Positions 27,203-30,163 of a DNA stretch of 30,163 nt are shown piece after piece. Made by a program: the position numbers and the translations under genes. The DNA comes from a virus. Its lineage: Duplodnaviria; Heunggongvirae; Uroviricota; Caudoviricetes. Numbering within the stretch: the first letter of the stretch is position 1; the number at the start of each line of letters is the position of its first letter. The notes beneath the pieces were generated by a model. The model saw only the letters and a program-made list of their open reading frames with translations, was not told the DNA's origin and did not search any database. Location of the stretch: the IMG/VR virus record IMGVR_UViG_2526164632_000040. One strand, 5' to 3'.

Positions 27203-27362
27203 TTAGTGAACAAACCACTCGTCAGCAGATTCCCAGGTATCTTTCAGAGTCTCCTGAACAAAAGTTTTTGCAGAATCCTTATCTGCGGTGCGTGTAACAG
27301 AAAGGCCATCGTTGCTGGTGGCTTTTACGATCACCTCTACATCGTCATAACGTTTACTGATG
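27203..27362 (-). pseudogene. dinI: dinI-like gene, C-terminal fragment (interrupted by IS66 copy 2)
   Basis: Reverse-strand translation ...[50 protein letters not shown] matches the DinI C-terminus (ETWESADDWFV) as recalled. Confidence 0.6.
27355..27362. repeat. 8-bp target-site duplication TACTGATG (left copy) of IS66 copy 2
   Basis: Identical 8-mer TACTGATG lies outside both IS ends (27355-27362 and 30067-30074). Confidence 0.8.
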
Positions 27363-27392
27363 GTAAGCGGCTCGCCAGAACCGTATTGATAT

Positions 27393-28964
27393 TTACTGAG
27401 AGGTCAGATCAACTTTCCAGGGCAACAGATCGCGTACCCGGTTTGCCGGCCAATCCTGGATATGCTCAATGACGTAACGCAGCCATTTTTCTGGTTCCAC
27501 ATTGTTCAGACGGCATGTGCCGATCAGCGAGTACAACACCGCCGCATGTTCGCCACCGCTGTCGGAACCCGCGAACAGCCAGTTTTTCCGGCCTACGGCC
27601 ACTCCCCGTAAGGCGTTCTCTGCGATGTTGTTGTCGATTTCCACCCAGCCATTACTGCAGTACACGTTCAGGCCATCCCACTGTTTCAGCAGGTATGCGA
27701 ACGCTTTTGCCGTATCCGAGTGACGCGACAGTGTTTTCATCTGAGTCTGTATCCAGTCATACAGTGACTGCATCAGTGGCGCAGCTCTGGCTTTTCTTGC
27801 CGCCAGACGCTGTTCTGCTGTACATCCCCGGACTTCTGCCTCTATGGCATACAGTTCACCGATACGCTGCAGGGCTTCCGTGGTGATGTCGGTGGGCACT
27901 CTTGCATGCACATCGTGGATTTTTCTCCGGGCATGAGCCATACACGCGGCTTCCGTTATTCTGCCGGATTCGTATAACACCCGGTAACCACCGTAAGCAT
28001 CGGCCTGAAGCACACCGCTGTAACCGGCCAGATGATTTTGTGGATGGATACCTTTCCGGTCCGGTGAGTACGCGAACCAGACCGCCGGGGGCATTTCCGA
28101 ACCGGCGTTACGGTCATCACGGACGTAGACCCACAGCCGGGCGGTCCGGGTTTTACCGCTGCCCGGCTCCTGGACCGGGACGGGGATATCATCAGCATGG
28201 ACTTTACCGGGCATCAGCACATACTGGCGCAGGACGTCATACAGCGGCTCCAGCAGTTCAGCAACGGCACCTGTCCAGCGCCCCAGCGTGGCGCGGCTCA
28301 GCTCCACGCCCTGGCGACGGTATATTTCTGACTGGCGGTATAACGGCAGATGGTCTGCATATTTCCCGGTAACAACATGGGCCAGAAGCCCCGCTCCGGC
28401 ATAACTGCGTGCAATGGGTTTTGAAGGTACTGTTGCCTGCACGATATGGTCGCACCGACAACAGGCCAGTTTCGGACGTTGTGTTTCGATAACCTTAAAG
28501 GCGCTGCTGATAAGCTCCAGTTGCTCTGACACATCACACCCCAGAGGACTGAGGTCACCACCACAGGCCGGGCAGCATTCCTCTTCCGGCCGGATGACCC
28601 GGGTTTCACGGGGAAGTGAGGCCGGTAACGGTTTACGGGCTGAAGACTGGCGCAGGGCGGATGGCAGTACCGGGTCATATTGCTCACCCAGCGTTTCCGC
28701 CATTTCTTCCTGAAGTGCGCTGATTCGCTCCTGTGCTTCCTGTATCTGCCGTTCGGTTTTAGCGCGAAGTTTTTCTGAGCTTTTACCGAACTGCATGCGC
28801 TGCAGTTTCGCAACCAGCGCCTTCAGCCGGTTGATTTCGGAAGCATAAGCCGCCACCCGCTGTGAGAGCAGGCGGTTGTATTTCGCCATCTGGCGGATGG
28901 TGTCCTGTTGCGTCTGCAACAGTGCCCGCAGGCGGGCATTCTCATGAGCAAGTGAGGTGTCCAT
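27393..28964 (-). CDS. tnpC: IS66-family transposase TnpC
   Basis: Translation identical to copy 1 TnpC (523 aa). Confidence 0.8.
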
Positions 28965-28983
28965 ATCCTCACTTTACAACGGG

Positions 28984-29331
28984 TTATATGCGGATGCCAG
29001 CGCGTTCCGTTCGTTTCGGGTGCTTCCAGTCGATGCCTTCGAGAAGCATGGACAACTGAGCCGGAGTAAGGTGAACCTTTCCATCGCGGGTGACCGGCCA
29101 GACGAAGCGGCCCCGCTCCAGGCGTTTGGTGAAGAGGCACAGTCCGTCACTGTCAGCCCACAGCACTTTTATCTGGTCACCCCGGCGTCCGCGGAAGATG
29201 AACAGATGCCCGGAGAACGGGTCATCCTTCAGGACGTTCTGAACTTTTGAGGCCAGGCCGTTAAAGCCATTTCGCATATCGGTGATACCGGCAACCAGCC
29301 AGATACGCGAACCGGCAGGGAGAGATATCAT
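28984..29331 (-). CDS. tnpB: IS66-family accessory protein TnpB (Orf2)
   Basis: Protein identical to copy 1 TnpB despite three nucleotide differences. Confidence 0.8.
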   Translation of the reverse strand: MISLPAGSRIWLVAGITDMRNGFNGLASKVQNVLKDDPFSGHLFIFRGRRGDQIKVLWADSDGLCLFTKRLERGRFVWPVTRDGKVHLTPAQLSMLLEGIDWKHPKRTERAGIRI

Positions 29332-29981
29332 CAGTGGCTGCTCCCTTTCATTTCGCGGATAAGTGTCTGTAATAACGCCGGTGTCAGTTCACCTTTCAGC
29401 CTGAGAGTTCCGGCCGGCAGAACCAGCTCGCAGCACAGACTGTCTGGCAGTGTATTTATCTGTTCAGGTATCTGCACTGGTGCCGGGATTTTATTATCCG
29501 GCTCCGGAGTTAACGTCACGGGAAGTAGCGATGTTTCATGTTCGCCGGGCGGTTGCAGGCCACCGTTACGCCAGAGATGCCGCCAGTTAAAGAGCAGGTT
29601 ATCGTTAATTCCATTCTCTCGAGCTATTTGTGCGACACAGGCACCGGGTAAAAGAGTTTGCTGAACCAGTCTCCATTTAAACTCCGGTGAAAATCGGTTC
29701 CGGCGGGGTTTCTCTGCTTTCACAGGCTGAGTCACGGTCGGGGCTGAAGGGTATCGCCCCGGGAAAAGAGCCCGGGCCAGTTGCCCGCAGGAATATTCAC
29801 CGGAAAGAGGCCAGTCAGTGAATACCTGGTGAAATCGCCTCACCAGAGAAAAAATGGCGGTTTTGCTGACACCAGTCTGCGCAGAAATGCGCGGGTACGA
29901 CAGTGACTCGTCAAATCTCAGCTGTAGCACACGCAGGATCAATTCTGGATTATCTGCCAGTACCGCTTTTCGTGCATTCAT
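29331..29981 (-). CDS. tnpA: IS66-family accessory protein TnpA (Orf1)
   Basis: Translation identical to copy 1 TnpA (216 aa). Confidence 0.7.
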   Translation of the reverse strand: MNARKAVLADNPELILRVLQLRFDESLSYPRISAQTGVSKTAIFSLVRRFHQVFTDWPLSGEYSCGQLARALFPGRYPSAPTVTQPVKAEKPRRNRFSPEFKWRLVQQTLLPGACVAQIARENGINDNLLFNWRHLWRNGGLQPPGEHETSLLPVTLTPEPDNKIPAPVQIPEQINTLPDSLCCELVLPAGTLRLKGELTPALLQTLIREMKGSSH

Positions 29982-30066
29982 CTTAAATGTCCTTTTACTG
30001 CGAAAATGGACATTAGTATCGGAAACAGGAAAGGGAGGCGAAAGACGGTTTAAATGATGCGCTTAC

Positions 30067-30074
30067 TACTGATG
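30067..30074. repeat. 8-bp target-site duplication TACTGATG (right copy) of IS66 copy 2
   Basis: Direct repeat of 27355-27362. Confidence 0.8.
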
Positions 30075-30163
30075 CGTCGGGTTAATTCTTCCTTTAACGC
30101 ATCCACAGCACCGGTTGGCATTTTAGTCATTTTTTCTTTGGCTATGCAGATTTCAATACGCAT
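30067..30163 (-). pseudogene. dinI: dinI-like gene, N-terminal fragment (start codon at window edge)
   Basis: Reverse complement of 30163-30067 reads ATG CGT ATT GAA... = [32 protein letters not shown], resembling the DinI N-terminus (MRIEVTIAK...). The promoter would lie beyond the window. Confidence 0.6.

Follow-up and report, generated by a model that had tools for sequence, protein, structure and literature searches.

Analysis of the 30,163-nt stretch held as IMG/VR record IMGVR_UViG_2526164632_000040 (Duplodnaviria; Heunggongvirae; Uroviricota; Caudoviricetes), referred to in its full length as the window, revealed that a prophage gene for a DinI-like protein is split by a complete insertion sequence (IS) of the IS66 family, and knockout of this gene by insertion of IS679 is, with high confidence, the best overall explanation of the locus. 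IS679 appears to have transposed recently into codon 33 of the 82-codon gene, duplicating an 8-bp target, TACTGATG. The target is the last gene of the prophage, lying next to the integrase gene (int) of an element integrated in dusA, and a further, independent insertion of IS679 has broken the tape-measure gene of the same prophage. No evidence contradicting this structural account was found.

The interrupted dinI-like gene and its insertion sequence

The features of the disrupted locus, in window coordinates and with lengths in amino acid residues (aa) for the open reading frames (ORFs), are the following:

30067-30163, minus strand: dinI-like gene, 5' fragment (ATG at 30163-30161; codons 1-32 and the first base of codon 33)
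27203-27354, minus strand: dinI-like gene, 3' fragment (rest of codon 33 to codon 82, then TAA at 27205-27203)
27363-30066, minus strand: IS679 (IS66 family), 2704 bp, genes co-directional with the dinI-like gene, both termini beginning GTAAGCG
27355-27362: target-site duplication, left copy, TACTGATG
30067-30074: target-site duplication, right copy, TACTGATG
29331-29981, minus strand: tnpA, IS66-type accessory protein, 216 aa (Pfam HTH_Tnp_1; NCBIfam IS66_access_TnpA, 283.6 bits)
28984-29331, minus strand: tnpB, IS66 Orf2-like accessory protein, 115 aa (Pfam TnpB_IS66, E=2.8e-40; NCBIfam IS66_TnpB)
27393-28964, minus strand: tnpC, intact IS66-family DDE transposase, 523 aa (Pfam DDE_Tnp_IS66, E=1.3e-103; NCBIfam transpos_IS66, 474 bits)
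30050-30163, minus strand: truncated fusion ORF, 37 aa (32 native residues plus SKRII), stop codon within the IS terminal repeat

Read on the minus strand, the last bases of the window are ATG CGT ATT GAA, the start of the dinI-like gene. A preliminary description of this DNA had placed the interruption after codon 32 at the IS end at 30066, the resumption at 27354 and the stop codon at 27203-27205, and all these positions were correct on re-reading; codon 33 is broken by the IS behind its first base, and the frame resumes at 27354. Deletion of the IS together with one copy of TACTGATG yields an uninterrupted ORF of 82 codons with neither frameshift nor stop, as had been stated, and the convergent orientation of the gene relative to the tail genes was likewise supported. 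The 8-bp duplication that had been assigned to this IS copy is indeed its own and is perfect on both flanks, the chance of such an 8-bp match being approximately 1/65,536.

On the plus strand the element extends from GTAAGCGGCTCG... at 27363 to ...GATGCGCTTAC at 30066, and its terminal inverted repeats are imperfect, with identical tips (GTAAGCG, 7/7 positions) and 17/25 identical positions overall. Its genes follow the three-ORF layout of the IS66 family, namely tnpA, tnpB and tnpC, consecutive, co-oriented and all intact; the first two overlap by ATGA, and tnpC carries the further Pfam domains LZ, zf-IS66 and IS66 C-terminal element. Megablast comparison with 5426 complete E. coli genomes returned several RefSeq copies 100% identical over 2704-2707 nt and labelled 'IS66-like element IS679 family transposase', and by this full-length identity the inserted element is specifically IS679.

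The empty site was reconstructed as a query of 1052 nt, composed of window positions 26400-27362 and 30075-30163, and was recovered at 100% identity without gaps in E. coli O111:H2 strain 12A (NZ_CP077479.1) and in strain FDAARGOS_1059 (NZ_CP066032.1), so that the IS-free prophages proposed for comparison in the preliminary description do exist and match exactly. In both genomes the uninterrupted 249-nt gene, annotated as 'DinI-like family protein' (WP_001217553.1), lies 61 nt downstream of a tyrosine integrase gene on the same strand, and the integrase gene abuts dusA. The 5' fragment (30067-30163) is 100% identical to positions 1999-2095 of the 12A prophage stretch.

Two NCBI assemblies, GCA_000250255.2 and GCA_002467565.1, contain a gene call for the 37-aa fusion ORF. 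Contig AIHC01000087.1 of the former is 100% identical to window positions 24050-30163 and very likely represents the source contig of the window, while contig NMLS01000036.1 of the latter shows the same dinI junction and breaks off within the IS. Among the complete E. coli genomes the insertion was present in 0/5426, and none covered at least 80% of the IS-plus-flank query; the two matches of highest coverage were rejected as unrelated IS66-family insertions, located in ydfJ and beside a DUF4376 tail gene. An exact-junction scan of GTDB contigs (one genome per species) found nothing. The insertion is real, is common to a small number of closely related isolates and is recent, since both the flanks and the two IS copies are near-identical.

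Family membership, gene product and promoter

The assignment of the joined 82-aa protein to the DinI family, put forward in the preliminary description, was confirmed by matches to Pfam and to PDB entries. It matched Pfam DinI (PF06183) over profile positions 1-63 of 63 (E=1.1e-19; 70.9 bits against a cut-off of 24.2) and E. coli DinI (PDB 1GHH / 7YWA) across residues 1-81 (E=3.7e-13), with an identity of 46% over the full length. The C-terminal helix TWESAD(E/D)WFV, which in E. coli DinI reads TWESADDWFV, is conserved. The NCBIfam DinI equivalog model NF007893 gave 73 bits, and because this score lies under the cut-off of 111 bits the protein is classified as a DinI-like paralogue and not as the chromosomal orthologue or equivalog, which agrees with RefSeq naming. 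It would be expected to bind RecA filaments as E. coli DinI does. DNA matches to this dinI allele occur in 2993/5426 complete E. coli genomes, and the dinI genes of phage mEp460, Stx phages and others share 92-98% DNA identity with it.

The 37-aa fusion is the only product that starts from the native dinI-like start codon, and the C-terminal helix motif is encoded, within the window, by the detached 3' fragment only. In the structure of E. coli DinI (1GHH) the residues kept in the 37-aa product form strand 1 and helix 1, and the remaining sheet and the acidic C-terminal helix are lost. This acidic helix is described as mimicking DNA on RecA in work quoted in a study of Gifsy prophages (Voloshin et al., 2001, cited in PMC3121763). 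The interrupted allele is most likely null, because the 37-aa peptide would be devoid of the acidic C-terminal helix through which DinI contacts RecA. For annotation purposes, the 37-aa ORF and a 43-aa ORF of the 3' fragment are best combined into a single entry, a DinI-like pseudogene disrupted by an IS.

The promoter lies just past the window end and was read in contig AIHC01000087.1 at 5936-5999. The search for a LexA box beyond position 30163, suggested in the preliminary description, was positive: two perfect CTGT-N8-ACAG boxes are located directly upstream of the ATG, both in this contig and in relatives. The 61-nt gap between int and dinI reads TTGACA-CTGTTTATCCATACAGT-TAAAAA-TAATACTGTATACAAACACAGTATGGAGGGACTTTT-ATG, in which a perfect -35 hexamer and a plausible -10 hexamer are separated by a spacer of 17 nt, and relatives share the layout. 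The first box falls within the spacer; the second, TACTGTATACAAACACAGTA, departs from the 20-nt consensus at 3 positions and lies a short way downstream of the -10 hexamer. A scan of the IS-free relative stretch (L001) returned 12 sites with at most one mismatch versus 3.8 expected, and the only perfect matches were these two boxes. This architecture points to an SOS-repressed promoter with predicted LexA binding, and the dinI-like gene would normally be LexA-repressed and induced by DNA damage.

Two minor features were noted around the start of the gene. In the Shine-Dalgarno region, 10 nt upstream of the dinI ATG (AIHC01000087.1 position 5990), AIHC01000087.1 and NMLS01000036.1 have GGAGGG in common and the IS-free genomes have AGAGGG, the promoter regions being otherwise identical. 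A promoter-like match, TTGAAA-16-AAAAAT at 30129-30156 on the minus strand, falls inside the 5' coding fragment of dinI and is directed into the IS; the count of promoter-like matches around this position does not exceed shuffle expectation.

A scan of the whole window against Rfam at the gathering threshold produced no match, so that dinI is accompanied by no known RNA element. Beyond the 3' end of the gene, one hairpin was recognized:

27101-27136, minus strand: G+C-rich hairpin of 14 bp without a clear U-tract, ~67 nt past the dinI stop codon (minimum free energy of the region -35.5 kcal/mol, z=-3.45)

This hairpin likely marks the 3' end of the dinI transcript or its terminator.

The host prophage and the first IS679 copy

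The IS-free prophage of strain 12A spans ~40 kb, with int and dinI at one end and a dusA fragment at the other, and comprises a LexA-family repressor (ymfK-like, 224 aa), early genes of lambdoid type and a late region for a contractile tail. BLAST comparison of the whole window with this prophage gave three collinear blocks of 99.96-100% identity, separated exactly by two IS679 copies; the window therefore corresponds to the dusA prophage plus two insertions. The description of the element in dinI as a second IS66 copy holds, the first being located as follows:

16230-18933, minus strand: first IS679 copy, in the same orientation, with its own duplication GGAAAACC, splitting the tail tape-measure gene

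The split tape-measure gene spans window positions 15218-19831, its 5' fragment matches PhageMin_Tail, and the gene is intact (633 aa) in the 12A prophage stretch at 9621-11522. Since it is split by the first IS679 copy, the prophage is probably unable to make tails. The two IS679 copies differ at 3/2704 positions (18030, 18073 and 18076 in the first copy versus 29163, 29206 and 29209 in the second), all synonymous and within 47 nt of tnpB, and both encode identical, intact Tnp proteins. In the differing stretch the first copy has the same tnpB sequence as many other elements of the IS66 family, which is suggestive of a short tract of gene conversion and not of separate point mutations. Judging by their intact ORFs, near-identical sequences and fresh duplications, both copies appear to be active.

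The two direct copies (16230-30066), with 8.4 kb of tail and baseplate genes between them, could readily give rise to an 11-kb deletion: if they recombined homologously, 11.1 kb would be lost and a single IS with non-matching flanks would remain. Among the complete genomes this 11.1-kb deletion derivative was not seen.

Further observations concern the DNA surrounding dinI. The gene, together with ~190 nt of 3' flank in which the hairpin at 27101-27136 lies, forms a travelling module of 438 nt (27014-27362 plus 30075-30163). Many E. coli genomes have this module at 99.5% identity, as does phage SKA5, in which it adjoins a DNA invertase and not the present tail-fibre region. This tail-fibre region (25486-26791) looks rearranged, and the corresponding ORF of the relatives is a truncated stfP pseudogene in RefSeq. 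The stfP-region ORF is followed by a glycine-rich ORF of 197 aa with a TTG start (25992-26585; Pfam Gly_rich_2, 33 bits), unannotated in relatives, and then by a 73-aa ORF.

Alternative explanations and relation to known systems

Two alternatives concern the structure itself. If the contig had been mis-joined through a repeated IS, dinI would be uninterrupted in the cell; the AIHC01000087.1 assembly is a draft, and IS679 and related IS66-family sequences are multi-copy in this lineage, 12A and FDAARGOS_1059 each having 17-18 matching places. A mis-join, however, would not create a duplication, and here the dinI halves, carrying a perfect one, rejoin in frame to a sequence that is 100% identical elsewhere, while the second, independent assembly reaches the same dinI junction. 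On the strength of these observations an assembly artefact was rejected as extremely unlikely. It could also be supposed that the two near-identical direct copies, 11,133 bp apart, acted as a composite transposon and brought in the 8.4-kb tail and baseplate block between them (18934-27362), but each copy is flanked by a matching duplication of its own (GGAAAACC and TACTGATG, respectively), their outer flanks differ from each other, and the bracketed genes are collinear with, and 99.96% identical to, those of the IS-free prophage. From the separate duplications and this collinearity it follows that the two insertions were independent, and the probability left to a composite transposon, which was also rejected, is practically nil.

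The remaining alternatives attribute a function to the insertion. It might have been selected because loss of the prophage DinI changed RecA-dependent repressor cleavage and the induction threshold, or it might have placed this IS679 copy under an SOS promoter. The intact LexA-boxed promoter points into the IS, tnpA, tnpB and tnpC are co-directional with it, and the 92-nt IS leader, whose folding might have hidden the tnpA ribosome-binding site, shows no significant structure relative to shuffled sequence (z=-0.87) and no terminator-like site in the scan. The repressor of the reference prophage belongs to the LexA family and is presumably self-cleaving when stimulated by RecA, and a prophage DinI-like gene has been statistically linked to the emergence of quinolone resistance (bioRxiv 10.1101/2023.06.20.545734). 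Against such a role, the insertion was seen only in the two assemblies and in none of the 5426 complete genomes, with no sign of recurrence or spread, and the prophage is separately disabled by the break in its tape-measure gene; furthermore, when dinI homologues of Gifsy prophages were removed by non-polar deletion, induction was not measurably affected (PMC3121763). A functionally meaningful insertion is accordingly improbable. The same low expectation applies to the specific scenario in which the IS679 copy would be transcribed by read-through on DNA damage, coupling its transposition to the SOS response while the RecA modulator of the prophage is removed, even though such read-through would be physically possible given the co-directional tnp genes and a leader without significant structure or terminator-like site.

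Another arrangement is known from Gifsy-1, -2 and -3, where, under one LexA box, the dinI homologue precedes a small antirepressor gene (PMC3121763); were the dinI-like gene to head a similar LexA-controlled operon, the IS would be polar on a real induction switch. The strong minus-strand hairpin downstream of dinI speaks against this, as does the coding content of the region, where no ORF of at least 20 aa is present in the first 200 nt on the minus strand and just one 26-aa and one 31-aa ORF (26922-27002 and 26788-26883, respectively) precede the convergent tail-side ORFs. A Gifsy-type small antirepressor ORF was looked for downstream of dinI and none was convincing. Since the first 200 nt hold no ORF of at least 20 aa, the Gifsy arrangement does not apply here, which fits with the 224-aa LexA-family repressor of the reference prophage, a protein needing no antirepressor. 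Polarity on an antirepressor is thus very unlikely.

Several qualifications apply to the preferred account. The score below the equivalog cut-off means that the paralogue may not behave exactly like chromosomal DinI, and its predicted binding to RecA is drawn from homology. A 43-aa ORF with a GTG start (27203-27334), on which Pfam DinI is recorded in contig AIHC01000087.1, keeps the C-terminal helix; its expression is unlikely, because its sole Shine-Dalgarno-like sequence, GAGG, abuts the start codon. The recent age of the insertion is estimated from near-identity and not from a dated phylogeny.

Taken together, knockout of the prophage dinI-like gene by IS679 concerns a known element in a known gene family and gives an ordinary pseudogene in a decaying prophage. 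Since the tape-measure gene is broken by a second, independent IS679 copy, the whole amounts to IS-driven prophage decay in an IS679-rich lineage and not to a regulatory device. The effect of the loss on SOS and induction behaviour, raised as a possibility in the preliminary description, is probably small; a large effect is doubtful because the tape-measure gene is already broken and because E. coli retains its chromosomal dinI, and equally because the Gifsy deletions described above left induction unchanged. The locus documents an ongoing expansion of IS679 in an O111-related lineage resembling enteropathogenic E. coli (EPEC) and the step-wise inactivation of a dusA-integrated prophage, with tape-measure gene and dinI both hit, and it matters little beyond annotation. 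Strain 12A or FDAARGOS_1059, paired with the source strain, would offer a natural isogenic-like pair for the function of the prophage DinI paralogue.

Compared with E. coli DinI (1GHH; RecA-DinI complex 7YWA), the 82-aa protein is of nearly the same size (81 versus 82 aa), aligns from end to end, shares the C-terminal helix and is likewise preceded by LexA boxes; it differs in being a prophage-borne paralogue with two such boxes. With the dinI homologues of mEp460 ('RecA filament binding protein DinI'), Stx phages and Gifsy prophages it has in common a LexA-controlled dinI-like gene near the prophage end, and with those of Gifsy also an SOS-box-bearing promoter directly upstream (PMC3121763). 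In the Gifsy dinI-gfoA-irsA operon, by contrast, dinI stands ahead of the gene for the antirepressor and of irsA, no counterparts of which follow the dinI-like gene here, and unlike the lambdoid, Stx and Gifsy prophages the present host prophage carries a tail module of contractile, Mu-like type and is integrated in dusA. The inserted element shares with IS679 of pB171 its length of 2704 bp, co-oriented tnpA, tnpB and tnpC, an 8-bp duplication and GTAAGCG termini. IS679 was reportedly first described by Han et al. (2001) on this plasmid, from EPEC strain B171, and its length, three-ORF layout and 8-bp duplication are said to agree with those of the element in the window. There is no difference within the element, and what is particular to the present copy is its insertion site in a prophage dinI-like gene.

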